From an uncultured Candidatus Saccharibacteria bacterium (GTDB lineage: Bacteria; Patescibacteriota; Minisyncoccia; Phycocordibacterales; Phycocordibacteraceae): a stretch of DNA of 60,388 nt. The stretch is taken from positions 40,897 through 101,284 of the forward strand of contig CAYUQB010000003.1 of the NCBI GenBank assembly GCA_964446735.1. Reading direction: 5' to 3'. Made by a program: the position numbers and the translations under genes. This document shows, piece after piece, positions 1,904 to 54,072 of this stretch. How positions within the stretch are numbered: the first letter of the stretch is position 1; each line of letters opens with the position of its first letter. The notes beneath the pieces were generated by a model. That model was not told where the DNA came from, ran no database searches, and saw only the letters and a list, made by a program, of their open reading frames with translations.

Positions 1904-2176
1904 TCAGTGGGCGATGATGTCGCACGCGAATCTCGGTCCCGTACCTCCCGGGGTGGAAGGAAGTGGACGAACACGAACGGGCCTGATGTTCTCCGGCATC
2001 TTCGGCAGGCGCCGATCGTAGGTGCCCGCCGCCGCACCGATGCTGGGGTCGGGGATCCGCTCCTCATACCAGCACCAGCGTCGCTCGACGAACCTTCCCT
2101 CCTCATTCATTCCCACGATGGTGGGTCTGAGGGCGAACCGTCTGACCCATACTCCTCGCTTGTGAACTCGGAACAT
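1904..2176 (-). CDS. Hypothetical protein, 90 aa (orphan unit)
   Basis: SD GGGAGG shortly upstream of ATG; upstream TTTACA-17-TATAAG promoter; hairpin downstream. Confidence 0.6.
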   Translation of the reverse strand: MFRVHKRGVWVRRFALRPTIVGMNEEGRFVERRWCWYEERIPDPSIGAAAGTYDRRLPKMPENIRPVRVRPLPSTPGGTGPRFACDIIAH

Positions 2177-2235
2177 TGTAGGCCCTCCCTGTGCTGCCTA
2201 CGCTTCTTATACGCAACCTCTACGCATGTGTAAAG

Positions 2236-2276
2236 AAAAAGAGCCGGACATGTTCCCGTAGGAACAGAGGTCCGGC
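2236..2276 (-). terminator. Intrinsic terminator of the LysM-like gene
   Basis: GCCGGAC...GTTCC-TACG-GGAAC...GTCCGGC followed by a T-run on the minus strand. Confidence 0.7.
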
Positions 2277-2301
2277 CCTTCATCTCACCGCCCGCGAAGC
2301 G

Positions 2302-3144
2302 CTAGCTGGTGCGGTACGGGACCGCGAAGCTGATGCCCGCTTGGTGCAGATCCTTGCTCACCTGCTTGGTGAACCGGGTCATGCCCTTCTGGCAGACGGA
2401 GTTGATGCAGTAGCCGACGATCGGCGTGGCGGTCTCGAAGCCCGAGATGAGCCGAGGATCCGCCAGCTCGTCGTTGGTCACCAGGATGAACCGATCGACC
2501 GCCTGGGTCTCAAGCGCCCGCACGGCGCCGGTCAGGCCCGAGAACTTGGTGCCGAAGGGCCAGAACTGCCCCTCGTTGTGGTATTCGACCATGCCCTGGT
2601 TGGTGTAGACCCAGATCCGGGCCGGCTCCTTCTTCTGAGCGGTGAACGCCAGGTTGAACTGGACGGCGGCGTCCAGGAGGCGCTGTTTGAGCACCGGATC
2701 GTCGCCGTCGACCAGGATGGCCACCTGTTCGTCAGCGCCGATCTTCGCCACCGCCTGCGTGATGTCCGCCGGGATGGCGGACGCATCGGGGATGCGCAGG
2801 GTCTGGCCGGGCACCAGCGTGTTGGCGCGGGCCAGGTTCAGCTTCTTGCTGCAGAAGTGGCGGCCGCGCTGTGGCCAGTTCCTGCCGATGCAGTGCTCGT
2901 TGAAATTGGTGCGGAGCGCGCGGTCGTTGAAGGCGGCCAGCATCAGGGTCGGCACATCACCGTGGGTGTCGGCGACCTTCGAGAGGTCGTCGCCACGCTG
3001 GGCGATGTACTGGACGCTCGCGGCGGGCGGCCGCTGCCAGGTCTCCTGCTTCTTGGGCAGGAACTGGTAGGCGCCCACGCCGATGAGGGCGACTCCGAGG
3101 ATGGCGCTGCCGGCGATGAGCGCAGTGCGTTGATTCTTGGTCAT
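2302..3144 (-). CDS. Membrane-anchored protein with an interrupted LysM-like domain
   Basis: N-terminal TM; YIAQRGDDLSKVA...LVPGQTLRIP matches LysM ends; SD GGAGG; TTGACA promoter upstream. Confidence 0.7.
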   Translation of the reverse strand: MTKNQRTALIAGSAILGVALIGVGAYQFLPKKQETWQRPPAASVQYIAQRGDDLSKVADTHGDVPTLMLAAFNDRALRTNFNEHCIGRNWPQRGRHFCSKKLNLARANTLVPGQTLRIPDASAIPADITQAVAKIGADEQVAILVDGDDPVLKQRLLDAAVQFNLAFTAQKKEPARIWVYTNQGMVEYHNEGQFWPFGTKFSGLTGAVRALETQAVDRFILVTNDELADPRLISGFETATPIVGYCINSVCQKGMTRFTKQVSKDLHQAGISFAVPYRTS

Positions 3145-3234
3145 ATGCCCCTCCGAGGCAATTGCGGTGAGATGGAATGAACGAGTTCCCTCACCTAGGT
3201 GATGGCCAAAAGGCCGAGAAACTGTACTGGGATA

Positions 3235-3298
3235 TATTATTGATTATTTAAATCAAATGTCAAGCTTGATTGACCTTCCCATTCGGAGCCTTCATAGT
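3235..3298. promoter_or_regulatory. Divergent sigma70-type promoters
   Basis: Minus: TTGACA (3263-3258)-16-AATAAT; plus: TTGACC (3270-3275)-17-CATAGT. Confidence 0.6.
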
Positions 3299-3329
3299 TC
3301 CCTCGGGTGCTCACAGGGAGATCGTTGCC

Positions 3330-3965
3330 ATGCCCCCGAAACTTCTCATCCTCGCTTCCGGGACGCGCAAAGGCGGCGGTTCCGGATTTGAAAATTTGGT
3401 TCATGCCACACGTGAAGGTGTGCTGCGCGCCGATATCGTCGGCGTCGTTTCGAACCACGAACACGGAGGAGTCCGCGAGCGAGCGGATCGCCTCGGCATC
3501 AGGTTCGGGTACCTGTCAGCCAAGTTCCATCCCACGGCGGCGTACCGCGCCATCTTCGACGCCTTCCAACCGGACTTCGTAGCGCTTTCGGGCTGGATGT
3601 TTAAAGTGAGCGGGCACGATCCGCGCACCACGTTCAACATCCACCCGGGACCACTCCCTGAGTCCGGCGGTCCTGGCATGTACGGAGATCACGTGCACCA
3701 GAAGATGCGCACGATGCGAGAACAGGGTGAGCTCACCCACTCCGCTGTCACCATGCACTTCGTCGACAGCGAGTACGACCGCGGTCCGCCCTTCTTCCGA
3801 GAACCGGTGGAAATCAAACCTGACGACACCGTGGAGTCGCTCCGAGCACGCGTGAACAGCCAGGAGCACTTCTGGCAGCCACGTATCACCAACATGGTGC
3901 TCCAACGTGAGATTTACTGGGACGGTGTGAACCCGGAGACTCTCGTGGGTGCGGTGCTGAATTAG
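3330..3965 (+). CDS. purN: Phosphoribosylglycinamide formyltransferase-like (PurN family)
   Basis: LILASG, VVSN, NIHPGPLP, TMHFVDSEYDRGP with catalytic N/H/D; SD AGGGAG before ATG 3330. Confidence 0.8.
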   Translation: MPPKLLILASGTRKGGGSGFENLVHATREGVLRADIVGVVSNHEHGGVRERADRLGIRFGYLSAKFHPTAAYRAIFDAFQPDFVALSGWMFKVSGHDPRTTFNIHPGPLPESGGPGMYGDHVHQKMRTMREQGELTHSAVTMHFVDSEYDRGPPFFREPVEIKPDDTVESLRARVNSQEHFWQPRITNMVLQREIYWDGVNPETLVGAVLN

Positions 3966-3984
3966 GAAAGGCACAAACAACAAC

Positions 3985-4012
3985 GGGGGCCCGCGCGAGC
4001 GGACCCCCTTTT
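3985..4012. terminator. Hairpin between convergent genes
   Basis: GGGGG-CCCGC-GCGA-GCGG-ACCCCC followed by TTTT. Confidence 0.6.
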
Positions 4013-4024
4013 GTTTCTAGGTGG

Positions 4025-4609
4025 TTATGGTTCGTGGTACGGCTGGTTGAGCGCGTTCATGCGCCCCCGCAGCTGCTCCTCGAAAGCCTGGCCGATCATG
4101 ATGCCGAGCCCTTCCTTCTCGATGCGTTGATCGATCATGGCGAAGAGCTCACTCGTCCGTCGCGCGTATTCCTGTTCGGTCGACGCACTGATCACGGCCA
4201 CGACCGTGCGGTCCGGCCCCGTACGGAGCGTGACGAAGGGTGGCCCCTCCCATGCCTCCAGATCGTTGTGGAGCTGCATGTAGTAGTAGGCGTCGACGAA
4301 GGTCTGCCTGACCTTCAGGTCCTCGATGGTGTTGAGGAGCTTCCGACGCTTCTTCGGATCAAGCTCGTGGATGAGCACGTTTTCTTGATCGCTCATTTTG
4401 CGAGCAAGTGCTTGCTTGTACGCCACGAGCCGAAGCAGCATTTCGCTCACATGCCCCGGAAGAGCTCGATCAGTTTCCTTGAGCGGCGAGAAGCGCAGGT
4501 GCTTGATGTTCGCGAGATTAACGTCGCGCATGATGTTGGCGAAGGGATGTTTGATGTCATCGCGGTCCCGTTCGCGCCCAGCTTCCGGCACAAGGTCGGT
4601 ATCGGTCAT
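4025..4609 (-). CDS. Hypothetical protein, 194 aa (orphan unit)
   Basis: Long ORF with G/C-rich third positions; TTGCTT-17-TATTAT promoter at 4689-4661. Confidence 0.7.
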   Translation of the reverse strand: MTDTDLVPEAGRERDRDDIKHPFANIMRDVNLANIKHLRFSPLKETDRALPGHVSEMLLRLVAYKQALARKMSDQENVLIHELDPKKRRKLLNTIEDLKVRQTFVDAYYYMQLHNDLEAWEGPPFVTLRTGPDRTVVAVISASTEQEYARRTSELFAMIDQRIEKEGLGIMIGQAFEEQLRGRMNALNQPYHEP

Positions 4610-4846
4610 TACGGTATGTCCCTAGAAAAAAAGAACGCCGCGGGATGCGCGGGTGTTCGGATAATAGCACAAAATAATGAAGTAAGCAAGAAGTGTGCGG
4701 CTTTGTACACATCTCGCTCGATAAGTCCTTGCGAATTACGCGAATCTGTATCATACTGCCGGCAACTCGACGGTTCCCTGGCTCCTAAAGGCTCCTGGCC
4801 CCCAAAGTGCAGCATCGACGAGGTTAATCATCAGTTTTTCAGCCAC

Positions 4847-5200
4847 ATGGCAACGAACAAGCTTTATGTCGGCGGTATTCCTTACCGCACGACCGAGGAT
4901 GAACTCCGCACCGCCTTTGAAGAGGCAGGTACGGTATCTTCCGTCAGTATTATCAGCGACCGCATGACGGGCCGCTCACGCGGTTTCGGCTTCGTGGAGA
5001 TGGCAGATGAGGCTCAGGCCCAGGCTGCTATCGATCGCTGGGATGGTAAGGAAATGGATGGGCGCATGCTCTCCGTTTCCTTCGCCCGCCCGCAGAGTGA
5101 TCGCCCCGCAGGAGGTGATCGCGGCGGCCGCGGCGGATTTGGTGGTGGTCGTGGAGGTTTCGGCGGTGGAGACCGCGGAGGCTTCGGCGGCGGCTACTAA
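4847..5200 (+). CDS. RNA-binding protein (RRM domain, Gly/Arg-rich tail)
   Basis: RNP2 KLYVGGI and RNP1 RGFGFVEM, RGG/FGG tail; true start inside the track's 4034-5200 ORF. Confidence 0.92.
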   Translation: MATNKLYVGGIPYRTTEDELRTAFEEAGTVSSVSIISDRMTGRSRGFGFVEMADEAQAQAAIDRWDGKEMDGRMLSVSFARPQSDRPAGGDRGGRGGFGGGRGGFGGGDRGGFGGGY

Positions 5201-7426: not shown

Positions 7427-7428
7427 AT

Positions 7429-8045: not shown

Positions 8046-8390
8046 TCAGCGAGGCAGGGCGTCGACCACGGCTTCGAGGCCGTAGAGTTCCGCAAGCGGA
8101 ACCGCGGCAGGACCTTCGCTGAAGGTCTCGAAGACGAGCGCCGGCGGGTGATGCTGGATCTCGGCGACCGAGTCGCGACCATCGATCCCATAGCGGGCGC
8201 GTTCGCGGGTCGCGAGGCCGGAGACCACCACGACTTTCGTGTGGTCCGGCATCAGTACAGGACGGTTGTGGTCATCGCAGTCCACGAACCAGTCCTTGCC
8301 CCCAGGAAGCACGGCGGGCATCAGAACCATCCGCTGACCCACGCGTGCCTGCTAGCAGGCTTCGCTCGAACCGTTCAGTTGGGTCGTCAC
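8046..8390 (-). pseudogene. Hypothetical orphan gene interrupted by an in-frame TAG at codon 13 (or a 98-aa gene from GTG 8342)
   Basis: SD GGGGAGG (8404-8398) 7 nt before GTG 8390, in frame with ORF 8342-8046 but with TAG at 8354-8352. Confidence 0.45.
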
Positions 8391-8585: not shown

Positions 8586-9248
8586 ATGAAGGTACTGTCC
8601 ATCGAGCCCGATGCGACGACCGCGTCGGATCTGGGCTCTATGCTCGTGCGTCACAACCACGAGTTCATTAACGTCACCAGCGCTGAAGAAGCGCTCCACA
8701 CTGCGCGGCGGGCGCCGGCAGATATCATCCTCGAGAACTACAAGCTCGAAGGAGACGAGTTCATCAGTGCATTGCGTATGAAAGCCTGCGTTGAGACGCC
8801 GCTCATCGTGCTCGGTCCCCGCGGATGGGAACCTGTGATCGAATGTCTCGACAAAGGTGCCGACGATTACCTGGCGCGCCCGTTTCATCTTTACGAGCTC
8901 TTAGTCCGGATGGTGGCGGTTACCCGTCGAGGCCGGCCACGGCTTCAACCTATCGATGTGGGCCCGCTGCGTTATAATCCGGAGCTGTCCACGTTTAGCA
9001 TCGACGCTGTGGTCCTGCACTTCACGAGGGTCGAGTACCACATGTTAGTCCATCTTGTCCTCCATGCAGGACAGGTCGTTTCTCACCTCGACCTCCATCG
9101 TAGCTATGCCGAAGACGACAATCGGCGAACCAACGTCGTCGAGGTGATGGTGAGTAAGATCAGGAAGCGATTAGATCCGGTACTCGCCACGGGCGCGCTC
9201 AAACTAGAGACGATCCGCGGCGTGGGCTACCGTCTCTCGGCACCGTAA
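8586..9248 (+). CDS. Orphan OmpR/PhoB-family response regulator with atypical receiver
   Basis: GADDYLARPF, winged helix NVVEVMVSKIRKRL...ETIRGVGYRL; TTGACG-17-TACAAG promoter; SD GGAG. Confidence 0.85.
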   Translation: MKVLSIEPDATTASDLGSMLVRHNHEFINVTSAEEALHTARRAPADIILENYKLEGDEFISALRMKACVETPLIVLGPRGWEPVIECLDKGADDYLARPFHLYELLVRMVAVTRRGRPRLQPIDVGPLRYNPELSTFSIDAVVLHFTRVEYHMLVHLVLHAGQVVSHLDLHRSYAEDDNRRTNVVEVMVSKIRKRLDPVLATGALKLETIRGVGYRLSAP

Positions 9249-9296: not shown

Positions 9297-9353
9297 CTTA
9301 TGGGACATCGGCTTCTCTTTTATCATTCGGCCGTTGTTTGCTACTCTGTATCC

Positions 9354-11260: not shown

Positions 11261-11608
11261 ATGCGCGATCCAGGCTGCGGGAAATTTCGGCCAACCCTTG
11301 ATCTTCTGCTTCCTTCCAGCATCGGGAGAGAGCACCACGAGCGACTGATGTGTGCGGTCCGACGCATGCTCAAACAAGTGGTCGACCCTGACCTGGTCGG
11401 GGTGAATTTCGACCACCACTACGGAGACGTCGACGACGTCGAAGATCCACAAGCCTGGATCATCGGCATCGCCTCCGACTTCCCTACGGGAATGCGTGCG
11501 TGCGAGTTCGCGGTAGCTGCTATCTACTTCGAGCTCAAGAGCGCGTTTTCAGTTCGGATAGCGAATCCGGGGCACACCGAGGAGTTCCTGCTCATCAAGT
11601 TCTCGTGA
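11261..11608 (+). CDS. Hypothetical protein, 115 aa (orphan unit)
   Basis: TTGTAA-16-TAGGAT promoter, SD GAGGGAG, hairpin at 11614-11648. Confidence 0.6.
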   Translation: MRDPGCGKFRPTLDLLLPSSIGREHHERLMCAVRRMLKQVVDPDLVGVNFDHHYGDVDDVEDPQAWIIGIASDFPTGMRACEFAVAAIYFELKSAFSVRIANPGHTEEFLLIKFS

Positions 11609-15261: not shown

Positions 15262-15358
15262 AAAACGCAAAAACCCCGAGATATCTCGGGGGTTTTGCGT
15301 ACCCGTTGCCAGCTTAAGAATTCATTAGCTGGGGAGGGCCTTTCGGCCACGGGTACAT
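15262..15358 (-). ncRNA. Candidate stand-alone small RNA (three-way junction plus intrinsic terminator)
   Basis: TTGACC-16-TATAAT promoter; GUACCCGU/ACGGGUAC, GGCC-GAAA-GGCC and CCAGCU/AGCUGG helices; terminator 15300-15265; no ORF. Confidence 0.65.
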
Positions 15359-15363
15359 AAGGC

Positions 15364-15391
15364 ATTATACACGCGTAATATGAGGGGTCAA
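15364..15391 (-). promoter_or_regulatory. Near-consensus sigma70 promoter driving the candidate sRNA
   Basis: TTGACC (15391-15386), 16 nt, TATAAT (15369-15364). Confidence 0.7.
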
Positions 15392-15556: not shown

Positions 15557-15871
15557 ATGAAGAACACTGATCTCGACGCCCTCATTCGGGCCGCGATTAG
15601 AGACTGCATCGGTGTAACCTGCGTTCGCTTGTCGCTTGAAATCGACGGCCTCGTCTACGAGTTCGTGTCCGACGAGGGCATTATTGAAAAGGGCCGGCTC
15701 GCAGGCAAGACTCGCCTGAAAGTTGGAGCCTTCTTCGAACTCTGTGACCAGCAGACCGGTGATCGATTCACCTGGCATTGGAAAAGAACGCACTGGAGCC
15801 GGAAGTGCAGGAGCACTTCCGGAAAAGGGACTCTGACGATTCCTGACCACACCCACCGCTACCATCTATGA
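15557..15871 (+). CDS. Hypothetical protein, 104 aa (orphan unit)
   Basis: TTGACT-16-TAGTGT promoter, SD GGAGGG, hairpin 15876-15903. Confidence 0.6.
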   Translation: MKNTDLDALIRAAIRDCIGVTCVRLSLEIDGLVYEFVSDEGIIEKGRLAGKTRLKVGAFFELCDQQTGDRFTWHWKRTHWSRKCRSTSGKGTLTIPDHTHRYHL

Positions 15872-15977: not shown

Positions 15978-16337
15978 ATGGAGGATCTCCACACCATACG
16001 TGCGCAGGAGGGCTTCTACGAGAAACTGGCGTCCTACATCGATCAAGGCCTCCACTCGGGCCAGATCTATCGTCGGTTGGGCGAGGACTTTCCGAACGCC
16101 ACCTTGCCGCGTTGCGTGAGCGGTATCAACACCTGGCTTTCCACGCGCAAGACCTGGCAGACGTTCGTCGACAAGCTCGGACGCGAGAGGACGGAAGTCC
16201 TCTGGGCGAAGCACCAGTCTCGCCTGCGCGTCTGGCTCGGTAGGCGACACGAGCCACAAAGCCTCGACCAAATGCTGGGACTCGCCCCGCCAGACGAGGT
16301 CCAGCCCAGGTTTAGCGAGCGCCTTCGCTACGGCTAA
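15978..16337 (+). CDS. Hypothetical protein, 119 aa (orphan unit)
   Basis: TCGACA-17-TATAAG promoter, SD AGGGAG, hairpin 16363-16390. Confidence 0.6.
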   Translation: MEDLHTIRAQEGFYEKLASYIDQGLHSGQIYRRLGEDFPNATLPRCVSGINTWLSTRKTWQTFVDKLGRERTEVLWAKHQSRLRVWLGRRHEPQSLDQMLGLAPPDEVQPRFSERLRYG

Positions 16338-18318: not shown

Positions 18319-18405
18319 GCCGAAAGTATATCGGACCTCCACTCATGCTTGACAACTTGTGTTATATATGTATTATACATTTCGGCACCAAGGAGGGCCC
18401 TTGCC

Positions 18406-18774
18406 ATGTACAGCTACGAAACGCGCACCGGCCAGTTCGGCTATCGGCGCAACTGCTCCATCCCCCACTTCATTCCGCAGGGGCTGGAGCACGACGGCTA
18501 TCCCGTCATCGTGTTCCCGCAGCGGAACAGCGACGTGACCGTCGGGAAGACCTACGACTTCACGATCAAGCCGACCCGTGCGGCCACGTACACGATCGAC
18601 GGCGAAGTCTATCGGGTGGCGCACGCGATCGCGCCACGGGACATCAACGACGAGGAAGGCACGATCTTCGACCAGATCGAGTGCCTGGAGAAGCCGACCA
18701 CGTTCACGCTCGGTGAACGGTTTCCGCCCGAGCTCGTCGAGCGCATGCGACAGATGGCCACCGCCCGGGCCTAG
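18406..18774 (+). CDS. Hypothetical protein, 122 aa (orphan unit)
   Basis: TTGACA-16-TATTAT promoter, SD AAGGAGG, hairpin 18800-18829, strongly G/C third positions. Confidence 0.7.
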   Translation: MYSYETRTGQFGYRRNCSIPHFIPQGLEHDGYPVIVFPQRNSDVTVGKTYDFTIKPTRAATYTIDGEVYRVAHAIAPRDINDEEGTIFDQIECLEKPTTFTLGERFPPELVERMRQMATARA

Positions 18775-18894: not shown

Positions 18895-19512
18895 ATGAAT
18901 TACGCGCCCATCGCGACCGGCACGGTCGCTTCGCTCTCGATCAATGGCGAACCTGTCGAAGAGGCCTACTTCACCATGCAGGGCCCGCGGGGCGACAAGC
19001 ACGCCGGCTTCTATCGCCAGCTTTCCGGCCACGACATCGACTACGTCCGGACGTCGAACCTCAAACGGGGCGACCCGATCTTCAACTGGCGGACCTGGAC
19101 AGGCCTGTCCGTTGAGGAGATCCGGGAGATCGAGCGCAAGCTCGGCCACGTCATCCCGCAGGGTTGCCTGTTGGAGAACATCGTCGTCGAAGGCATCCCG
19201 AACTTCTCGAAACTCCCGCCGACGAGTCGGTTGGTGTTTCCGGAATTCCCGGCAGCTCACCCCGACGACTCTGATCGGCAGGCAGTGCTCGCCGTCTGGG
19301 AAGAGAACACTCCGTGCAAGGTCGTCGGGAAACGCCTCGAAGATCACCACGGGGTCGATGGCCTGATGACTCGGTTCAGAGAAGCTGCTGAAGGCCTGCG
19401 CGGCGTCATGGGTCTCGTGCTCTCGCCGGGCAAGGTGAAGGTGGGCGACTTCGTCCTGGTCTATCCGCCGACCGGCATGAGTGCGGCCGTCCCAGCGCTC
19501 GAAGTCGCCTAG
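18895..19512 (+). CDS. MOSC-domain protein
   Basis: GDKHAG, LLENIVVEG, TPC (conserved Cys), RGVMGLVLSPGKVKVGD; SD GGGAGG. Confidence 0.75.
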   Translation: MNYAPIATGTVASLSINGEPVEEAYFTMQGPRGDKHAGFYRQLSGHDIDYVRTSNLKRGDPIFNWRTWTGLSVEEIREIERKLGHVIPQGCLLENIVVEGIPNFSKLPPTSRLVFPEFPAAHPDDSDRQAVLAVWEENTPCKVVGKRLEDHHGVDGLMTRFREAAEGLRGVMGLVLSPGKVKVGDFVLVYPPTGMSAAVPALEVA

Positions 19513-19587: not shown

Positions 19588-20097
19588 ATGAGACGCTATT
19601 GGCCCGTTATTGCAATCATCGTGCTTCTGCTTGGGGCGGTTGGCTGGTATGGCATTTCCCCGCTTTTCAATCCACTCGTGACTGACGAAGCGGCACCAGA
19701 TGATGCTCAACTTACTGCAACAACGACTGAAACGGATACCAGCGTACCCATGACGCAAACGCCCACCCCCTCTCCACGCATGGAGCTACGGGGGGATATC
19801 GTGGGTACGCCTGCGCACCCTGCTTCAGGTACGGTACGTATTGTTTCAGCAGACGGTACGCAGTACGTACGATACGAGAACCTCAAGACCATTAACGGTC
19901 CAGATATTTATGTCTACCTCGCGAAGGACACTGGAGCTAAAGAATTCGTGAGTCTCGGGAAAGTGAAATCAACCGAAGGCAACAGCAACTACGAAATACC
20001 AGCCGGCGTGAATCCTGCTGAATATCGATATGTGCTTATCTGGTGTAAGCAGTTCGGTGTGCTATTTAATTCTGCTGAACTGAAACCGACGGGCTAA
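19588..20097 (+). CDS. DM13-domain membrane-anchored protein
   Basis: [36 protein letters not shown]. Confidence 0.85.
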
Positions 20098-23203: not shown

Positions 23204-23407
23204 ATGGAAACCCGTGCCTTACAGAGGGCGATCAGTGGCGCCTGCGCGCTCGCCCGGAAAGCGCTCGACGAGACCGACCCGCCCGGAACCGTGAACGTCA
23301 GCGCCAGCAATCGTGATGTGGCTGTTCTCGCCAGCGCCATCCTCACGAAGGCGGAGATCCGCATCACCGCGGACGACCTGCAGAACGTGGTCAAGCAACC
23401 GGCCTAA
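23204..23407 (+). CDS. Hypothetical protein, 67 aa (orphan unit)
   Basis: TTGACG-17-TATTTT promoter, SD GAGGAG, downstream hairpin. Confidence 0.6.
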   Translation: METRALQRAISGACALARKALDETDPPGTVNVSASNRDVAVLASAILTKAEIRITADDLQNVVKQPA

Positions 23408-23527: not shown

Positions 23528-23776
23528 ATGCGGAAGTTCCTCAACACGGTCAAAGAAATCGGCGAAGGCCTCTTCTACCTGGCCAGCGGCTCGTCGCTGT
23601 GTGGCGTCATGCTCGGCGCCGGCGCCTTCATCTCGGGCGCCACGCCCGAGCAGGTGATGTCCACCATCTTCGGCTGGAGCGTGCTGACCTTCTTCGGCGC
23701 CTCGGCACTGGCCGGCCTGGTCAAGCTCGATATCATCCTGTCCACCAGGCACGATCGGGCCATCGCCACGATCTGA
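23528..23776 (+). CDS. Small two-TM membrane protein (orphan unit)
   Basis: SD AGGGAG; two hydrophobic helices. Confidence 0.65.
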   Translation: MRKFLNTVKEIGEGLFYLASGSSLCGVMLGAGAFISGATPEQVMSTIFGWSVLTFFGASALAGLVKLDIILSTRHDRAIATI

Positions 23777-31176: not shown

Positions 31177-31518
31177 CTAGTGGCGACGGTCGCGCTGGGT
31201 AGCCCAGCGCATGTGTTGGTCCGTCGTCCAGCGGAAGCCCTCTTGCTCCGGGACTACCGGAGCCTGCGGCCCTATCTGACGGACGATGTAGCGGCCGACG
31301 AGAGCGACCACATAGCCCACCAGCAGACCACAGCCGACGGCCAGTTGCTCATGCTGGTTGAACAGGATTCCGGCGAGAACCGGGATCATGATCAGCAGAC
31401 AGAGCGCCATCGCGATCGAGCGGATCGAGGGTTGCACCTTGACCGTATAGAAGATCGCGAGAGCGAACGCGGGCGCGAAGAAGACGCCGTAGTGGATCAG
31501 AAAATACCAGTTCGACAT
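31177..31518 (-). CDS. Three-TM membrane protein (orphan unit)
   Basis: TTGACT...TATAAT promoter, SD CGGAG, terminator 31152-31121. Confidence 0.65.
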   Translation of the reverse strand: MSNWYFLIHYGVFFAPAFALAIFYTVKVQPSIRSIAMALCLLIMIPVLAGILFNQHEQLAVGCGLLVGYVVALVGRYIVRQIGPQAPVVPEQEGFRWTTDQHMRWATQRDRRH

Positions 31519-36681: not shown

Positions 36682-36867
36682 TCAGGCCAGATCGGCTTCG
36701 ACGTCTTCCGAGTAGGAGCCGGTAGGTGTCTGCGGCGGGAGCGGAAGCGTCTCCTCACTGAAGACATACATGGGCACCTGATGCACCGGATCCGTGACGA
36801 CGAGTCGGTCAGCATGCGTGCCACGCTTGGCCTGCAACTGTTCGTTGATGTCGATGACTTGTCCCAT
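36682..36867 (-). CDS. Hypothetical protein, 61 aa (orphan unit)
   Basis: SD GGGAGG; TTGACG-16-TATTTT promoter whose -35 overlaps the gdh stop; hairpin 36628-36660. Confidence 0.6.
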   Translation of the reverse strand: MGQVIDINEQLQAKRGTHADRLVVTDPVHQVPMYVFSEETLPLPPQTPTGSYSEDVEADLA

Positions 36868-38272: not shown

Positions 38273-38437
38273 TCACGGGGCATCCTCTTCAGATTGTTCG
38301 GGGAGCCCTTCAGGCGGAGGATTGCCCTTCACTACTTGTGCCATTTCGGCATCGAATTGGCGCCCTCCCATGCCACGGCTCGCTCCCCACGGGTCATATT
38401 GCATATGCGCCGGAATCGGTGGACGCTCTCCGTCCAT
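38273..38437 (-). CDS. Small acidic Pro/Gly-rich protein, 54 aa, not in the ORF track
   Basis: MDGERPPIPAHMQYDPWGASRGMGGRQFDAEMAQVVKGNPPPEGLPEQSEEDAP; SD GAGGAG; hairpin 38257-38226 after the stop. Confidence 0.55.
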   Translation of the reverse strand: MDGERPPIPAHMQYDPWGASRGMGGRQFDAEMAQVVKGNPPPEGLPEQSEEDAP

Positions 38438-38503: not shown

Positions 38504-38698
38504 CTATCGAGACGTGAACGGTGGGATACCAAGATCCTTACAAATCTTGCGATCTAGAAATGTATTGATTTCCGTATGACGCGGCACGGTGCTCATCAGG
38601 CCATTCGTAGAATTTAGATACACCGCATGCTTCGCTCCTTCGCGAATCAATCTACAACCATAGTGATGGAGGTGGCGTACGAGCTTCGCCCGATTCAT
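38504..38698 (-). CDS. hicA: HicA-family toxin
   Basis: LVRHL...GC.LIREGAKH...TVPRHTEI...ICKDLGI. Confidence 0.85.
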   Translation of the reverse strand: MNRAKLVRHLHHYGCRLIREGAKHAVYLNSTNGLMSTVPRHTEINTFLDRKICKDLGIPPFTSR

Positions 38699-38700
38699 GG

Positions 38701-38910
38701 TTATGCGGGAGCGAACCGTTCGCGTACAACGCCACCCTTTGCCTGCTCACGCTTAGTCAGCTGACGTCGCGCGCTAACGAATTCTTCAAGTGCGTCAGAA
38801 AGATTTTCTTTCGCCTCCCGCTTCGAAGATCCCTGAGTGTTTACACCAGGAATTTCTTCAAGCCAGGCAACGTAGCCTTGGCGGGTTTTTTTATACACGG
38901 CTGTATACAT
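38701..38910 (-). CDS. hicB: HicB-family antitoxin (short form, no DNA-binding domain)
   Basis: YVAWLEEIPGVNTQG....EA.ENL.DALE; directly upstream of hicA. Confidence 0.85.
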   Translation of the reverse strand: MYTAVYKKTRQGYVAWLEEIPGVNTQGSSKREAKENLSDALEEFVSARRQLTKREQAKGGVVRERFAPA

Positions 38911-41233: not shown

Positions 41234-41518
41234 CTAGTGGATCACGGCGAGATACAGGCCGATCAGGAACCCGGCGACCAGGAAGACGCGGACATAGAAC
41301 AGGTACTGCAGCTTCCGGAACTGGTGACAGAGCCAGAGCGCCGCGAATCCGACGATGAGCGCTGGACCCATGTTCACGAGATAGGGATCGAGAGACGAGG
41401 GCGTCGGGACCTCCGGCATTCCGAGGAACCCGATAGCAGCCGTCACGATGACGAAGACCGCGAACCATAGCCCGGGCCGGTGTGGATCGTACAGTTTGAA
41501 TGCGCCTCGCTTGAGCAT
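41234..41518 (-). CDS. Three-TM membrane protein (orphan unit)
   Basis: TTGGCT-17-CATACT promoter, SD GGAGGG, downstream hairpin. Confidence 0.65.
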   Translation of the reverse strand: MLKRGAFKLYDPHRPGLWFAVFVIVTAAIGFLGMPEVPTPSSLDPYLVNMGPALIVGFAALWLCHQFRKLQYLFYVRVFLVAGFLIGLYLAVIH

Positions 41519-43847: not shown

Positions 43848-43952
43848 ATGTTGAAATACTGGACGAGTCACCTGATGGTGCAACACGTGCGGAGGATGCA
43901 AGCGATGAACTTCCACCGCAAGGGCGCCAAACGCAAACCGCCGCCGTCATAA
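43848..43952 (+). CDS. Putative small basic peptide, 34 aa (45 aa if ATG 43815)
   Basis: MLKYWTSHLMVQHVRRMQAMNFHRKGAKRKPPPS; AAAGGTGTTGCC-ATG context like other orphan units. Confidence 0.35.
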   Translation: MLKYWTSHLMVQHVRRMQAMNFHRKGAKRKPPPS

Positions 43953-47865: not shown

Positions 47866-48030
47866 ATGTGGCGTATGCGACAACGACGCCTGCTCAGACG
47901 AGCGCTGCGGAAGACCCGCCAGGAGGCGGGCAACCGAACGGTCCGAAGCAGGAAGAGCAAGGCGCGTATCAAGCGAGATCAACCCAGGTGCTCAACGAAC
48001 AAGAAGCGGCCTCGGGGTTGGTGGTGGTGA
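47866..48030 (+). CDS. Arg/Lys-rich peptide, 54 aa, not in the ORF track
   Basis: MWRMRQRRLLRRALRKTRQEAGNRTVRSRKSKARIKRDQPRCSTNKKRPRGWWW; AAGGAGGG and GGAG upstream; hairpin 48044-48074 after the stop. Confidence 0.55.
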   Translation: MWRMRQRRLLRRALRKTRQEAGNRTVRSRKSKARIKRDQPRCSTNKKRPRGWWW

Positions 48031-48104: not shown

Positions 48105-49853
48105 ATGGCCTCGCTTGAGGAAAAACGTCACACCCTCGCGCATCTACTAGCGGCTGCCGTGCTTGAACGCTACCCGCACGCCAAGCCCACGCTTGGTCCT
48201 GCGATTGATACCGGGTTTTATTACGACTTCGACTTCTCCGCTGGAGAAGCGCCGAAAGAAGCAGATCTTGCGGCGCTCGAGGACGCAATGCGCGATCTCC
48301 TTTCTTCGTGGACCGAGATGGCTGGTACGGAAGTATCAGAAAAAGATGCCCGGGATCGGTTTTCGGATAACCCCTACAAGCTGGAACTGATTAGCGGGAT
48401 TGTCGAAGCTGGTGAGCCTATTACGCTCTACACCGCCGGAAACTTTACCGATCTATGTCGAGGTGGACACAGCGAGACCCCCGCACACGACATAAAGGCC
48501 GACACATTTGCACTCGATCGCATCGCGGGAGCGTACTGGCGTGGTGACGAGACGAAGCCAATGCTTACTCGGATCTATGGACTTGCCTTTAGCACCAAGG
48601 AAGAACTCGAAGAACACCGAGCCAGAATAGAGGAAGCGAAGAAACGTGATCACCGCAAGCTTGGCGTGGAGCTCGACCTCTTCACCTTCTCTCCGCTCGT
48701 CGGTTCAGGACTTCCTCTCTATACCCCCAATGGAACCATTATGCGTGAGGAGCTTGCGCGCTATTCAGAGGAACTTCAGCGCGCGCACGGATTTAAGAAA
48801 GTGTGGATCCCACACATTACAAAGACTGATTTGTATAAAACATCCGGGCACTGGGACAAGTTCGGTGATGAGCTCTTCCTCGTCAAAAGTCAGGAGTCAT
48901 CGGACGAGTTCGTCATGAAGCCAATGAACTGCCCGCATCACACCCAAATCTACGCAAGTAAGCCGCGTAGCTACCGTGACCTCCCTATCCGGTACATGGA
49001 AACCACTACCTGCTACCGCGACGAAAAGACTGGTGAGCTGTCGGGCCTTACGCGCGTCCGTTCCCTGACCCAAGATGATGCACATGTGTTCTGTACGATG
49101 GATCAGATCGAGCAGGAGTTTGAAAACATCATGTCCATGATCAAGGAAATGTATGACACGCTCGGCCTTTCCTTCCGTGCACGTCTTTCCTTTAGTGACC
49201 CAGAGCACCCGGAAAAATACTTAGGGGAAAAAGCGGTATGGGCTCAGGCAGAGGAAACCCTTGAGAGCATTACAAAAAAACTTGGTCTTGAATATGAAAT
49301 CGCTCCAGGCGAAGCGGCGTTCTATGGCCCGAAGATCGACATCATGGTCACCGATGCACTCGGTCGGGAGTGGCAATGCGCAACGGAACAACTCGACTTC
49401 GTACAACCTGCGCGTTTCTCTCTTGAATACACCGCCGAGGATGGTACGAAGAAAACACCCGTGATGATTCATAAGGCACTCCTTGGTACCATCGATCGTT
49501 TTATGGGTGTCTACATAGAACACACAGGAGGACAGTTCCCAGTCTGGCTTTCACCGGTTCAGGCAACGGTGCTTCCGGTGTCCGAAAAGCATCTTGAATA
49601 CGCCAAAAAAGTCGCTGATGCACTCAGCGTGCAGGACGTACGAGCTGAAGTCGATACAGCAAATGAATCGCTCGGAAAAAAGATCCGAAACGCCAAGCAA
49701 CAGAAGATTCCGTATCTGCTTGTCGTGGGAGATAAAGAGGCTGAGAGCGATACCGTCACGGTTGAGATGCGGGGAGACGAAAAGCTTGGAGCGTTGAAAC
49801 TCTCTGAATTCACAGAACGGATTACACGAGAGATCAAAGAACGCAGTCTATAA
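48105..49853 (+). CDS. thrS: Threonine--tRNA ligase
   Basis: RHTLAHLLAAAV, DLCRGGH, KPMNCPHH, TRVRSLTQDDAH, AAFYGPKID; start 48105 with TATCCT box 7 nt upstream. Confidence 0.97.
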   Translation: MASLEEKRHTLAHLLAAAVLERYPHAKPTLGPAIDTGFYYDFDFSAGEAPKEADLAALEDAMRDLLSSWTEMAGTEVSEKDARDRFSDNPYKLELISGIVEAGEPITLYTAGNFTDLCRGGHSETPAHDIKADTFALDRIAGAYWRGDETKPMLTRIYGLAFSTKEELEEHRARIEEAKKRDHRKLGVELDLFTFSPLVGSGLPLYTPNGTIMREELARYSEELQRAHGFKKVWIPHITKTDLYKTSGHWDKFGDELFLVKSQESSDEFVMKPMNCPHHTQIYASKPRSYRDLPIRYMETTTCYRDEKTGELSGLTRVRSLTQDDAHVFCTMDQIEQEFENIMSMIKEMYDTLGLSFRARLSFSDPEHPEKYLGEKAVWAQAEETLESITKKLGLEYEIAPGEAAFYGPKIDIMVTDALGREWQCATEQLDFVQPARFSLEYTAEDGTKKTPVMIHKALLGTIDRFMGVYIEHTGGQFPVWLSPVQATVLPVSEKHLEYAKKVADALSVQDVRAEVDTANESLGKKIRNAKQQKIPYLLVVGDKEAESDTVTVEMRGDEKLGALKLSEFTERITREIKERSL

Positions 49854-49911: not shown

Positions 49912-50133
49912 CTAGTGGTTCTCCAGCATGCTCTCGATTACCGCGTCAGGATCCTGAAGCAGCGTCGAGGCACGACTAGTGAAGTTCGCCTCCTCTTCCG
50001 TCGCTGCGGACTGATCGGACATGGCGCCGAGGGCCATGAGTGCGATCAGCGCTCCAGCTCCAAGAAGAAGCGGCGAGAGCGGAAACGGGTTCCGACGGAA
50101 CCCACGTTGCGGCACGGGCCGATGAATCGTCAT
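49912..50133 (-). CDS. Small single-TM protein, 73 aa (orphan unit)
   Basis: SD GGGGAGG 8 nt before ATG; one hydrophobic helix. Confidence 0.55.
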   Translation of the reverse strand: MTIHRPVPQRGFRRNPFPLSPLLLGAGALIALMALGAMSDQSAATEEEANFTSRASTLLQDPDAVIESMLENH

Positions 50134-50219: not shown

Positions 50220-50228
50220 TCGGATGTT

Positions 50229-52760
50229 TTATCCGATGAGCTTCAGTGCCCGGGTGACTGCAACCTTCGCGGCAGTGGTGCCTGCAGTGTAGCTCGAGTC
50301 TACAGCAGTCGAGAGGGTCTCGATGAGCTTCTCGAGGAAGTTCGGCGCGCAGTTCTCACAAACCTTGGCGATTTCAGGGTGAACGGGAGCACCCTCTGTC
50401 TTTGCTCGATATGCGTCATCAAGGGCGAACACCGCGTGGGTGAGGAATTCTTGCGCGTCTTCGCCTGCCTTCGTGACGTCACGGAGCTTTGCGAAGACTG
50501 CATCCTTATCACCAGCGAACATCGCAGCGAGGAATGCCGGCACATCCGATGGCGTTGCGGTAGGTTCCGTGCGAGCTGAGGCCACTGGAGCCGCGACGGT
50601 TCGAACCGACTGAGGGATCGGGGGGAGCAGGTGCGAATCATCTGCGGCACTCGAGAGGCCCTTCACAATGTCCTCGATGGTGAGCGGTTCCTCGGCACTC
50701 TTAGCCTTGAAGGCCTCGTAGGTTGAAGTAGGTGCTGCATGTGCGACTGGCGCAGCGACGCTCTCTACCACAGGACGAGGTGCAGGGGCATGGATCGGAG
50801 CAGGCGCATGAACTGCATGTGTCTGCGCTTCTGTGAGAATGCCGACCTTGCGAAGTGCGAACGGTAGCGCGCCACCAAGGATCACGTACGCGACCGCAAG
50901 GCTCCACAGGACGAGCATGAGCCAGTAGAGCATGGTGCCCCCAGGTCCAAGATCAAGACCGGTGTACGGGAGATCCGAGAGCGCTACGTATGTGAGCGGT
51001 TGTGCACTCACGAGTGGAAGCGAGTCGAGCACGACTTCACGGTCTTCGTTTCGCACACGAAGCGTTGCAGAGCAGCGGATGGTGTCCCCGTTATCGCCAT
51101 AGAAGGTGCCTTCGTATTCGTAGGTACCTGGCCGGTTAGGCGAGACGCTACGAGAGCCGGACGGGCTTACCGAACCGATGCCCTCGTTGATGCGCACGCG
51201 GTATACGTTGTCGCTATCCCACGTGAGACGTGCTGTGTCACCCTCATCGATACGTGAAGGGGAAACCCGCATCGTACACGACGGTCCTGGTTCAGAGCGC
51301 GTCGATACATGTACCGCACAGGTGACGGTGCCGCCGGGGCCACTTGCCGTACCTACGTAGGTGCGCGAGCCGCCTGGATAGACCGTACGGGAGCCGGAGA
51401 GTGGTACTGAGCCAACGCCTTGATCGATGTGGAAGGAGGTCGCATTAGACGAACTCCACGAGAGCGTCACCGGATCGCCTGGGCGAATGTTAGTCGGGCT
51501 CACTGAGAGCGTACAGCTCGGGAGTACTGGCGTAACGATCGGTACAACAACAACGGTCGCTGAACAATTCACGGGAGTACCGTTTGTTCCAGTCGCCGTG
51601 AGTGTATAGGTCGTAGTGACTGACGGTGCCACTACTCTACTCCCTGACGTTGGTACGGATCCGATACCGTGATTTATAACGACATTGTTTGCGTTATGTG
51701 TCGTCCAGGAGAGCGTTGCTGCCGATCCTTGGGAAATAGTCGTCGGAGTGACCGAGAGCGTACACGCAGGCTGCTGCGGAGTCGGTGGAATTACCGTCAC
51801 TGTTGCGCTACACGTCACCGTGCCGCCAGGACCCGTTGCCGTAAGGACATACGTGGTGGTGCCACTTGGCTGCACCACGGTCTCACCGACACCTGGATAG
51901 GCGCCGAGACCATGGTTGAGCGTTACGGTCGTTGCATTCTGGGTAGTCCAGCGCAGAAGTGCGGTCTGACCCTGATGGATGGTTGAAGGTGAGACGGTGA
52001 GCGTACACGCAGGCTGCTGCTGAGGCACCTGAACCGTGACGGTGGCATAACAATTAACCGTACCGCCGGGGCCGGTTGCGGTCAGAGTATAGGTGGTGGT
52101 TTGATTGGGCACGACGGTGCGTGAACCACTCGTCGATACGCTTCCGATTCCGTTATTAATCGAGACGCTGGTCGCGTTGTTAGTCGTCCACGAGAGAACC
52201 GAAGCACTTCCCTGCTGAATGTTCGTCGGATGAGCCGAGAGCGTACATGCAGGCTGAGACGGAGGCTGGGGTACCTGAACGACAATCGTTGCGCGGCAGT
52301 AGATAGCGGTGCCATCCGGCAAACTAAATGCCTTCAGGGTGTAGGTAGTGGTCTGACTTGGTGAGACCGTGATCGCTCCATTGGCATCGATACCACCGAT
52401 GCCGTGATCGATCTCGGCATAGGACGAATTTGTGATGTGCCAAGAAAGCGTGGCGCTCCCTCCCTGCTGAATCGTTGTGGGATTAATTGAAAGTGAACAC
52501 GTACCCACAGGCTGCGGCTCCTCTTGAGGAGGAGGCGGAACGACCGGAGGCGGTGGAGGTGGCGGGGGCGGAGGAGGCGGTGGAGGTGGCGGGGGCGGAG
52601 CGCAGCATGGGGGCGCAACGAGTGCATGCGCCTCTGACGGCGTAACCATACCGGTCGCAAACGCGAGGCCAACGCCAAGCGTAAAGACGGTAAGTACGGC
52701 GATCAGACCGATAAGGATCGGCCGTTCTTTCGTTGCTTCAATTGATGCAGTCATGCTCAT
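50229..52760 (-). CDS. Surface protein: signal peptide, poly-Pro, six Ig/PKD-like repeats, internal LPYTG-TM, cytoplasmic domain
   Basis: AHA signal site; six ~82-aa C-TL.V.P...L.W...G.V...G...V.P..TTTY.LTA.G.GG...C repeats; LPYTG at 50972-50958 then TM and RK. Confidence 0.85.
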   Translation of the reverse strand: MSMTASIEATKERPILIGLIAVLTVFTLGVGLAFATGMVTPSEAHALVAPPCCAPPPPPPPPPPPPPPPPPPVVPPPPQEEPQPVGTCSLSINPTTIQQGGSATLSWHITNSSYAEIDHGIGGIDANGAITVSPSQTTTYTLKAFSLPDGTAIYCRATIVVQVPQPPSQPACTLSAHPTNIQQGSASVLSWTTNNATSVSINNGIGSVSTSGSRTVVPNQTTTYTLTATGPGGTVNCYATVTVQVPQQQPACTLTVSPSTIHQGQTALLRWTTQNATTVTLNHGLGAYPGVGETVVQPSGTTTYVLTATGPGGTVTCSATVTVIPPTPQQPACTLSVTPTTISQGSAATLSWTTHNANNVVINHGIGSVPTSGSRVVAPSVTTTYTLTATGTNGTPVNCSATVVVVPIVTPVLPSCTLSVSPTNIRPGDPVTLSWSSSNATSFHIDQGVGSVPLSGSRTVYPGGSRTYVGTASGPGGTVTCAVHVSTRSEPGPSCTMRVSPSRIDEGDTARLTWDSDNVYRVRINEGIGSVSPSGSRSVSPNRPGTYEYEGTFYGDNGDTIRCSATLRVRNEDREVVLDSLPLVSAQPLTYVALSDLPYTGLDLGPGGTMLYWLMLVLWSLAVAYVILGGALPFALRKVGILTEAQTHAVHAPAPIHAPAPRPVVESVAAPVAHAAPTSTYEAFKAKSAEEPLTIEDIVKGLSSAADDSHLLPPIPQSVRTVAAPVASARTEPTATPSDVPAFLAAMFAGDKDAVFAKLRDVTKAGEDAQEFLTHAVFALDDAYRAKTEGAPVHPEIAKVCENCAPNFLEKLIETLSTAVDSSYTAGTTAAKVAVTRALKLIG
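52546..52599 (-). repeat. Two 27-bp tandem copies encoding a Pro17 run
   Basis: GGAGGCGGTGGAGGTGGCGGGGGCGGA x2 on the plus strand. Confidence 0.8.
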
Positions 52761-52881
52761 ACGTTCGTTCTGAATGCTGATAATAAAACTGATAAGAAAT
52801 ATGCCCCAGCCGCAGTATGCGGCGTATGAAAAAGGGGAGGTCGGGCGGGAGGAATGGCAGCTGCCACCCTCCCGCTCTTCC

Positions 52882-54072
52882 CTACTCGTCCCAGAGGTAC
52901 AGGTATCCTGGGCCTTGCACCCGGGTGCCGGGCGGCAGTTCGGACGCTTTGTACGCGACGCGTGCGACCTGTTGACCGCTCGAAAGCTTGACGTAGTCAT
53001 CGCTGGTCGCGATGGCGACATACGAGGTCTTCCACTCACCGGTCACCGGATCGATGTACTCGATGCAGATGCCGAGGCCGGAGGCCGGGTTCGCGGAGTT
53101 CTTCCGCGAAACTCGAATGGCCCACTGGCCGGGCGTGAGGTCCGGGATGGACGCTTCGGCGGTGCGTGTACGTGGCCTTGCGACCGCGTCAGCACCTTCG
53201 AAACTGCACTCCCACCGATACCGGATGCAGCCGGCGGCCATGGCCTTCGACGTCGAGATCTCACGAATGCTCGTGCCGGTGTCCTCCACCCGCACGTACC
53301 CATGACACACCGAGTCGGTGAGCGGGCCGTAGCCAGGGATGTGAGCGATGCTCTCACCCTGCCGGCGGATCGGGAACAGGACATAGTCGCACGGAATGCC
53401 CGCCTTCCGACCCGCCAGGTTGAAGCAGACGTCCGGGAGGATGGCTTCGTACATGACGCCATCGATCTCTTTCGTCCACTTACAGGCCGGCGCGGTGATG
53501 CGCATGTTGGCCGGCTGGACGAAGTCGACCAGGACATTGCGCCACAGACCCGAGGGCCCGGTGCGCATGAAGTCCAGTCGATCGTCCTTGGAAAGCTCGA
53601 TGCGTTCGCAGTTTTCGCTGCGCATCGTCGTCGCCATACTAGCGGCGGCTGCGGCAGGCCAGCCAGCACGGATGAAGTCCCGCTCGGCGTGAGCAAGCGC
53701 TTCTTCCTTCGTGGCGTACGCCCGGTCGCGATTGTAGTACTGCCACCGAGCGATACCGTCGCTGCGATGGGCGACCGGCCGCTTAGCGGCAGGTTTTGCT
53801 GCGGCTGGCTTGGCTTTCGGTTCCGCCGCAGGCGTAGCAGATGCCGGAGGCGGTGTTGCCGCCTTCGGATCGGGCTTCGGACGCGGAGCCGACTTGCAGT
53901 CGGCACGCGCCCTGCCACCGGTCGTAGAAAGCGCCCAGGCAGTCGCGCCGTCAGGCGTGGTGCATCTGGCCTCGTTCCTTCCCGGAGGCGCTTTAGCAGC
54001 TTCCGCGGCGAACGTCGGCGTTGCAAGGCTGGTCGTGCCAAGCAGCGCCAGGGTGATGAGATAGCTCCTCAT
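52882..54072 (-). CDS. Secreted Cys-rich hypothetical protein, 396 aa (orphan unit)
   Basis: Signal peptide MRSYLITLALLGTTSLATPTFA, Pro/Ala/Lys linker, about ten Cys; SD AGGGGAG; hairpin after the stop. Confidence 0.7.
   Translation of the reverse strand: MRSYLITLALLGTTSLATPTFAAEAAKAPPGRNEARCTTPDGATAWALSTTGGRARADCKSAPRPKPDPKAATPPPASATPAAEPKAKPAAAKPAAKRPVAHRSDGIARWQYYNRDRAYATKEEALAHAERDFIRAGWPAAAAASMATTMRSENCERIELSKDDRLDFMRTGPSGLWRNVLVDFVQPANMRITAPACKWTKEIDGVMYEAILPDVCFNLAGRKAGIPCDYVLFPIRRQGESIAHIPGYGPLTDSVCHGYVRVEDTGTSIREISTSKAMAAGCIRYRWECSFEGADAVARPRTRTAEASIPDLTPGQWAIRVSRKNSANPASGLGICIEYIDPVTGEWKTSYVAIATSDDYVKLSSGQQVARVAYKASELPPGTRVQGPGYLYLWDE

Follow-up and report, generated by a model that had tools for sequence, protein, structure and literature searches.

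Phage morons, in the concept of Hendrix and Juhala, are promoter-gene-terminator units that lie between conserved genes. In the Firmicutes, C-rich small RNAs (sRNAs) of the RsaE/RoxS type pair with G-rich ribosome-binding sites. In the Bacteroidota translation is independent of the Shine-Dalgarno (SD) sequence: the anti-SD is sequestered, and a few genes have retained an SD. The genes considered here can be set beside each of these systems. They are 21 units, numbered 1 to 21, in a 60,388-nt stretch of bacterial DNA (the window), which an earlier note had taken for a pool of about 20 self-contained single-gene cassettes slotted between housekeeping genes. The units are accessory, and they share a trait which that note had missed, i.e. 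an expression style distinct from that of the leaderless, SD-free core. We think it probable, if not strongly so, that they form a lineage-restricted class of accessory genes with fast turnover and an expression style of its own.

The window corresponds to C3:40897-101284 of genome G000 (769 kb in 5 contigs, 96% complete, 53% GC). Its backbone comprises rpoB/rpoC, dnaG, a sigma factor gene, smc, rnc, dnaE, thrS and gyrB, together with a sortase locus. As judged from gene content and relatives, the host is a Paceibacteria/Parcubacteria-type bacterium of the Candidate Phyla Radiation (CPR); one homologue is annotated 'Parcubacteria group bacterium'. The relatives within the genus are distant (RpoB identity of about 82%), and G000, G012, G002 and the clade G017/G007/G009 are nearly equidistant by RpoB, in a star-like arrangement.

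The units and their slots in relatives

The coordinates proposed for the units translate without a stop in 20 of the 21 cases; the remaining one, 8046-8390, contains an in-frame stop, and the real open reading frame (ORF) is 8046-8342. The units are listed below (aa, amino acids; GC1, GC2 and GC3, G+C content at the first, second and third codon positions).

Unit 1, 1904-2176, minus strand: 90-aa ORF, leader CACAGGGAGGG, hairpin of -20 kcal/mol past the stop; GC1/GC2/GC3 of 0.60/0.55/0.71, coding status uncertain
Unit 2, 2302-3144, minus strand: 280-aa membrane-anchored protein, GC3 0.92, forming a divergent pair with unit 3
Unit 3, 3330-3965, plus strand: PurN-like formyltransferase (Pfam PF00551, E=3e-17), SD-led, leader CACAGGGAGATCGTTGCC
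Unit 4, 4025-4609, minus strand: 194-aa ORFan with a weak SD (AGGGA)
Unit 5, 8046-8342, minus strand: 98-aa ORF, GTG start, no SD
Unit 6, 8586-9248, plus strand: OmpR-type response regulator, SD-led (GGAGA)
Unit 7, 11261-11608, plus strand: 115-aa ORFan in the exonuclease/DsbA slot, SD GGGAGAG, hairpin of -23.4 kcal/mol
Unit 8, 15557-15871, plus strand: 104-aa ORFan, SD GGAGGG, GC3 0.67
Unit 9, 15978-16337, plus strand: 119-aa ORFan, SD GGGAG, GC3 0.79
Unit 10, 18406-18774, plus strand: 122-aa protein, SD GGAGGG, GC3 0.89
Unit 11, 18895-19512, plus strand: MOSC-domain protein (Pfam PF03473, E=1.4e-12), SD GGGAGG
Unit 12, 23204-23407, plus strand: 67-aa ORF in the primase/rpoC slot, SD GAGGAG, with a hairpin
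Unit 13, 23528-23776, plus strand: 82-aa membrane protein, GC3 0.90, leader CACAGGGAG
Unit 14, 31177-31518, minus strand: 113-aa membrane protein in the rpoB/trmD slot, promoter TTGACT-18-TATAAT (31596-31567)
Unit 15, 36682-36867, minus strand: 61-aa ORF, SD GGGAGG
Unit 16, 38273-38437, minus strand: 54-aa ORF, SD GAGGAG, GC3 of only 0.53, coding status uncertain
Unit 17, 41234-41518, minus strand: 94-aa membrane protein between rnc and smc, SD GGAGGG, hairpin of -23.7 kcal/mol
Unit 18, 43848-43952, plus strand: 34-aa ORF, doubtful as a gene, no clear SD, best 3' hairpin of -11.4 kcal/mol
Unit 19, 47866-48030, plus strand: putative 54-aa Arg/Lys-rich ORF in the dnaE/thrS interval, SD GGAGGG, hairpin of -26.5 kcal/mol; GC2 of 0.62, atypical for coding sequence
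Unit 20, 49912-50133, minus strand: 73-aa membrane or secreted protein downstream of a large surface protein
Unit 21, 52882-54072, minus strand: 396-aa secreted Cys-rich protein in the sortase/surface-protein locus

Units 18 and 19 are too short to be verified as genes. A Pfam scan of all units save the 34-aa unit 18 returned only three kinds of domain, those of the formyltransferase, the MOSC protein and the OmpR-type regulator; for the latter, Trans_reg_C was found at E=4e-13, with Response_reg under its cut-off, and unit 1 had no match. Unit 6 has a paralogue on the same contig and relatives throughout the order at 22-32% identity. Of the ORFans for which structure prediction had been proposed, units 2 and 21 were modelled at low confidence (predicted local distance difference test, pLDDT, of 54 and 61, respectively). 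Neither gave a fold match at E<=0.001, the best being a weak vWA-like match to NorD for unit 2 (E=0.003) and Ig-like adhesins for unit 21 (E=0.015), and no function could be assigned. A single GC-rich hairpin at 3985-4008, GGGGGTCCGCTCGCGCGGGCCCCC, lies between the convergent units 3 and 4 as a predicted bidirectional terminator for both.

That the units are accessory follows the earlier note, and the comparison with relatives bears it out. Five relatives within the genus have a collinear core backbone, and gene-level tblastn found no match to the units in their syntenic regions. For a genus-wide screen, 17 units were run against the 40 other genomes of the genus as three shorter concatenated queries (a single query of all units together scored 2 candidates per genome, so that absences in that screen are uninformative). 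Fifteen of the 17 were absent. The only matches were those of unit 2 in G018 (37% identity) and of the MOSC protein of unit 11 in G010 (39% identity, moderately GC-richer than its neighbours), in one genome each. Units 1, 4 and 5 were without homologue among the 40 genomes, and units 7, 8, 9, 12, 13, 14, 15 and 20 had no match in the genus genomes searched. A tblastx coverage map against the relatives was dropped as unreliable, since GC-rich, low-complexity sequences cross-matched.

The slots themselves, in the relatives, are usually 5-150 bp long or occupied by different, unrelated genes, some of ordinary composition. The rnc-smc spacer measures 37-39 bp in G007 and G009 versus 410 bp in G000. 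At the exonuclease-dsbA slot, G017, G012 and G002 have 5-80 bp versus 464 bp in G000, and G007 has an unrelated 128-aa ORF; the primase-rpoC slot is 129-401 bp in relatives versus 783 bp in G000, and the rpoB/trmD slot of unit 14 has unrelated content. Since three or four nearly equidistant lineages have empty slots, parsimony favours a gain along the G000 branch.

Two expression styles in one genome

One of GGAGG, GGGAG and GGAGA was found 5-10 nt before the start in 18 of the 21 units and in 2 of 24 core genes (Fisher p=1.2e-7), a contrast that is partly circular since the units had been picked for a strong SD. An unbiased scan of the whole genome agreed with it: 53 ORFs with an SD and an N-terminal ATG had a GC3 above 0.68, versus 11-21 for control motifs, and there was no excess at normal GC3 (69 versus 56-84). 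A filter on coding periodicity left 43 SD-led, GC3-rich ORFs genome-wide, with GGGAGG as leader consensus.

The other signals reported for the units fared unequally. The GC-rich hairpin was recovered in 20 of the 21 units (free energy of -12 kcal/mol or below within 75 nt past the stop), with a median of -23.9 kcal/mol for units versus -14.1 kcal/mol for core genes (p=0.002); the hairpins are unrelated to one another in sequence. The richness in G or C at third positions, judged by eye in the earlier note, was upheld by a per-gene count: mean GC3 was 0.757 for the units versus 0.574 for 30 syntenic core genes (Mann-Whitney p=9e-8), with the periodicity GC3>GC1>GC2 of real coding sequence. The shift spans every codon family, including the CTG and CGG codons avoided by the core, and extends to amino-acid usage, in which R, P, C and W are up and K and E down. 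Islands of at least 0.60 GC make up about 18% of the genome. The promoter said to precede most units was not confirmed by formal scans: only about 4-5 have a strong TTGACA-16/18-TATAAT match, among them unit 10 (TTGACA-16-TATTAT at 18349-18376), and promoter-like sites in the window are not above shuffled sequences (12, 9 and 2 found versus about 10 expected per 20 kb). As for the recurrent leader words, both exceed chance in the window, CACAGGGAG with 3 copies versus 0.43 expected (none of 100 shuffles reached 3) and TTGCCATG with 5 versus 1.7 (2 of 100 shuffles reached 5). However, CACAGGGAG has 7 copies genome-wide and only the three of the window precede starts, so that it is not a general leader word; these words are a minor signal.

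The native core genes, for their part, look leaderless and without SD. In 33% of 606 native long ORFs the ATG is preceded, at a distance of 6-9 nt, by the end of a -10 hexamer TANNNT, often TG-extended, versus about 1.2% per background position, and SD-like motifs are depleted in the 606 ORFs of native composition (5.3% versus 7.6% for the background). It is the combination of this spacing with the SD depletion that leads us to read their mRNAs as leaderless. All seven 16S rRNA 3' tails readable in the family (five from this genus and two from a sister genus; L041, L042 and L056-L060) are without CCUCC: they read GGAUCAUAUCC or GGAUCAAUUCC where GGAUCACCUCC is expected, the motifs CAUAUCC or CAAUUCC replacing CACCUCC. 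These tails agree with the reported absence of an anti-SD motif from about half of the Parcubacteria (PMC9297842). In G006 and G176, which have such tails, the orthologues of unit 21 are nevertheless SD-led (AGGAGG and GAGAGGA); an SD-like motif is thus conserved where its canonical partner is absent.

Being accessory does not by itself account for the GC-rich, SD-led style, since the accessory genes of normal GC in the window (hicB, the genes at 19588, 32261 and 33582, and an AI-2E permease gene) are in the native leaderless style. The first belongs to an apparent HicA/HicB-like toxin-antitoxin pair (38504-38910, minus strand, 64 and 69 aa, judged by eye), which is of native composition, is preceded by a promoter of the leaderless type and is missing where relatives are syntenic.

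In leaderless genes, calling the longest ORF gives false N-terminal extensions. In the window this concerns the following features.

thrS: start corrected to near 48108
hisS: start corrected to near 9351
AI-2E permease gene: start corrected to near 16416
RRM protein, 4866-5200: lies within a spurious 388-aa ORF

A separate observation concerns G003, a relative within the genus, the rpoB region of which (G003:C1:546057-549220) is broken up into several reading frames and has numerous in-frame TGA codons, perhaps through recoding, or else through a fault of assembly or a frameshift.

Maintenance or import of the GC-rich signature

Five units (2, 3, 4, 10 and 21) were searched globally, in protein sets of 5.8 billion clusters and 1.8 billion representatives. 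Unit 2 has only two homologues, at 50-54% identity, in the 5.8 billion clusters; unit 4 has one at 60% identity and six remote ones in the 1.8 billion representatives; unit 10 has four (46-50%) and unit 21 eleven (35-57%). The formyltransferase of unit 3 is the most widespread, with homologues at about 50% identity in at least 12 of 150 other genomes sampled in the order. Its gene in the Parcubacteria metagenome-assembled genome (MAG) L018 is 66% identical, has a near-identical leader and adjoins the homologue of unit 2 (54% identity): the two units are adjacent and divergent in both genomes. Likewise, the homologues of unit 10 in L034 and L036 are SD-led and lie near an AI-2E transporter gene, as in G000.

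The composition of these homologues relative to their neighbours is given below.

Unit 10 family, L034 (0.40 GC): homologue GC3 0.60, neighbours 0.25-0.45
Unit 10 family, L036: homologue GC3 0.65, neighbours 0.30-0.49
Unit 2 family, L019: homologue GC3 0.85, neighbours 0.60-0.71
Unit 2 family, L018: homologue GC3 0.88, neighbours 0.71-0.83
Unit 2 family, G018: homologue overall GC 0.65, neighbours about 0.48 overall GC
Unit 21 family, G170/G176: homologue GC3 0.52, neighbours 0.26-0.37
Unit 21 family, L032: homologue GC3 0.65, neighbours 0.42-0.58

Homologues of units 2, 10 and 21 are SD-led and most of them GC3-richer than their neighbours, in hosts ranging from 0.40 to 0.61 GC; the unit 2 family is GC-rich in all the hosts in which it was traced. 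Silent sites are saturated at such distances (27-54% protein identity), and for this reason the GC3 excess argues for maintenance.

The case of unit 21 goes further. Its orthologues (27-38% identity) occupy the same slot in metagenome contigs and genomes of at least two genera, all are SD-led, and the order gyrB-CARDB-sortase-X-surface protein-thrS-dnaE is found in L032, L033, G006, G170 and G176. Judged by this synteny, unit 21 has long been part of the sortase locus while evolving fast, and is neither an insertion nor a cassette as first proposed. In the G007 clade the sortase/surface-protein slot has two unrelated secreted proteins. The locus itself (50229-56105) includes, besides a large surface protein with repeats, a CARDB protein whose end is made of four 93-99-nt tandem repeats (55739-56102). 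Upstream of unit 21, a perfect 21+21-nt palindrome at 54186-54228, AGAGTTATCCAATCTCGAACT / AGTTCGAGATTGGATAACTCT, overlaps the sortase gene at its 3' end and may serve as terminator or operator.

From the above we favour a signature maintained for the class over a fading mark of import. The units would be genuine accessory genes, each transcribed separately, in a bacterium of the Paceibacteria (CPR), and not mobile cassettes with defined ends. Most would encode small membrane or secreted proteins, and a few the formyltransferase, the MOSC protein and the OmpR-type regulator. Their predicted architecture is that of a set-back promoter, a leader of about 20-40 nt with a GGGAGG-type SD-like motif, GC-rich codons and a strong GC-rich hairpin terminator; native genes would in contrast be leaderless, with the -10 box 6-9 nt before the ATG and no SD, in a family whose 16S rRNA lacks CCUCC. 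One or two genes at a time would be gained, lost or replaced at core-gene junctions, presumably with no element-encoded recombinase. The GC-rich, SD-led signature would belong to the gene families, as suggested by its recurrence across hosts regardless of their GC and in the locus of unit 21, which is inherited vertically; the upkeep of the signature may be due to selection on expression or to biased recombination or repair. This leaves room for some members, notably units 2 and 3, to be fairly recent arrivals from higher-GC Paceibacteria.

The most serious alternative, which we consider rather unlikely, is recent horizontal transfer from higher-GC, SD-using donors (Paceibacteria like L018 or G002, an unsampled host, or phage), the shared traits being unameliorated marks of the donor. 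Several observations favour it or weigh against a maintained signature. The shift in all codon families and in amino-acid usage resembles that of a gene with an evolutionary history at high genomic GC. Relatives have empty slots, and the units are absent from the genus, the GC content of which spans 0.53-0.63. Units 2 and 3 have their closest homologues in L018, a 61%-GC MAG, where unit 2 is 54% identical versus 37% within the genus. In most genomes the formyltransferase family has a GC3 like that of its host, though it is often SD-led (in 7-8 of 13), and it is GC-rich in G000 and three others; since its GC-richness does not persist, recent import of the unit 3 family is plausible here. In addition, the unit 21 orthologue of G006 is not GC3-richer than its neighbours, persistence is based on only four traceable families, and the loss of the anti-SD is read from seven relatives, the 16S gene of G000 being assembled only at 9-726, at the end of contig C4. 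Extra mRNA structure, considered as a further trait of the class, found no support either (synonymous-shuffle z of -1.08 for units versus -0.61 for core genes, p=0.15). What sets transfer back is that the searches of 5.8 and 1.8 billion proteins returned homologues only on CPR-like contigs and no donor was found. Those of units 2 and 10 exceed the surrounding genes in GC in every traced genome, the 0.40-GC and 0.61-GC hosts included, in spite of silent sites being saturated; those of unit 21 do so too, except in G006, and unit 21 is syntenic across two genera and SD-led throughout.

It is very improbable that the units are an artefact, i.e. chance ORFs in GC-rich non-coding spacers where stops are rare. 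GC-rich stretches do contain overlapping ORFs on both strands, and units 1, 16, 18 and 19 are short, with atypical positional GC and no homologues. However, coding periodicity is strong in most units, the five that were searched globally all have homologues (at 35-66% identity), rare as these are, three units match Pfam domains, and an SD at the correct spacing is enriched 2.5- to 5-fold over control motifs. The units therefore look like genuine coding sequence.

The earlier idea of stereotyped cassettes acquired by competence and recombination found no support as far as structure and route are concerned; what stands of it is a distinct accessory set between core genes, with no mobility genes in sight. 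Motif discovery at the edges of the units gave no repeat or inverted-repeat family common to them, and there is no attC-like element. The window has no tRNA genes, no match to Rfam families and no visible phage genes, and there was no mobility-related Pfam match among the 20 units scanned. No unit has a paralogue in the genome except the response regulator. 'Single-gene' does not apply to units 2 and 3, a conserved divergent pair kept in L018, and the 96%-complete genome yielded no ComEC domain. The tyrosine recombinase domain PF00589 is absent from the window and was found genome-wide only at C1:420618 and C2:99819, on other contigs. The second of these genes (C2:99819-100337) lies on a 128-kb contig of 0.499 GC, below the rest of the genome, which may include an integrated element. 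A site-specific cassette system, integron-like or other, with a recombinase encoded elsewhere that inserts promoter-to-terminator modules between genes, would suit dispersed, self-contained transcription units placed exactly between core genes and the different genes found in one slot among relatives, but is the least probable of the readings given the lack of common edges and of paralogues, the absence of an integrase from the window, the mere two tyrosine recombinases of the genome, and units 2 and 3 and unit 21 not being single cassettes.

A candidate partner RNA and comparison with known systems

One further feature of the window bears on the GGGAGG leaders.

sRNA gene, 15262-15391, minus strand: promoter TTGACC-16-TATAAT, three-way junction and intrinsic terminator

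The predicted transcript is of about 95 nt (15262-15358), with a minimum free energy of -48.6 kcal/mol (z=-7.05) and no match to an Rfam family. Homologues (L118, L121-L128) were found in G176 and on eight metagenome contigs that look CPR-like and have 0.36-0.48 GC, in varying genomic contexts but each with its promoter and terminator. The alignment of the 7 distinct sequences has the three-way junction and the terminator in common, with compensatory changes in 15 of 31 pairs. Two elements are both invariant and unpaired in all 7, a CCUCCC at the junction and a loop containing GAAUUCUUA. This CCUCCC is the exact complement of the leader consensus GGGAGG of the units. Two side trials were given up: an exact-pattern scan of genome contigs for the hairpin gave 49 chance matches in genomes that are GC-rich and non-CPR (a tighter pattern worked on metagenome contigs), and complementarity of the sRNA loop to the 16S tail, considered by eye, was not consistent from one of the two genera to the other.

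By its complementarity, the sRNA is a candidate partner of the GGGAGG leaders. A conservative guess, by analogy, would be a regulatory role of the RsaE/RoxS type. More speculatively, and with low probability, it might act in trans through its exposed CCUCCC on some 40-50 GC-rich, GGGAGG-led accessory genes in this anti-SD-less, leaderless family, either as a detachable anti-SD that licenses translation or as a dedicated silencer or stabiliser; the GC-rich, SD-led signature would then be the mark of membership in that compartment.

If a maintained class is the right reading, compositional islands in CPR genomes should not be put down to recent transfer by default. Small, fast-evolving, mostly envelope-related genes would hold to a codon usage of their own and to an SD-like leader in spite of a ribosome apparently unable to read an SD in the usual way. 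This raises the question of what recognises GGGAGG once the anti-SD is lost, for which the covarying sRNA with its invariant CCUCCC is a candidate. It would also matter for annotation, since gene callers tuned to one mode of initiation mis-start or miss genes of the other class, as with the spurious extensions of thrS, hisS and the RRM protein here, and it would bear on the diversification of surface proteins in host-dependent CPR bacteria.

Set beside the described systems, the units come close to several and coincide with none. With horizontally acquired islets and ORFans they share an atypical GC content and codon usage, a patchy spread, a location at junctions of a collinear core and, often, a small envelope protein as product. 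They lack the tRNA, integrase or direct-repeat hallmark, their homologues are confined to the same CPR group, and their atypical composition, unlike a fading import mark, is seen again in other hosts, in homologues of units 2, 10 and 21. Integron cassettes are likewise small, mostly single-ORF accessory genes of unknown function, but the units are dispersed over 52 kb with promoters of their own and form no array, without attC, attI or IntI. The likeness to phage morons resides in the promoter-ORF-terminator module, the differing GC and the conserved neighbours, with a strong promoter for 4-5 units only; the context differs, being the core chromosome (rpoBC, dnaE, smc, gyrB) and not a prophage. 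The sRNA resembles RsaE/RoxS in its conserved, unpaired CCUCCC complementary to GGGAGG leaders, with which pairing is predicted from sequence; it differs in its three-way junction, in belonging to no Rfam family and in occurring in a lineage without a 16S anti-SD. The Bacteroidota offer the parallel of a genome-wide disuse of the SD together with a minority of genes that have a strong SD-like motif. Here, however, the anti-SD sequence is replaced (CAUAUCC or CAAUUCC) rather than sequestered, and the SD-led minority consists of GC-rich accessory genes and not of ribosomal-protein genes.

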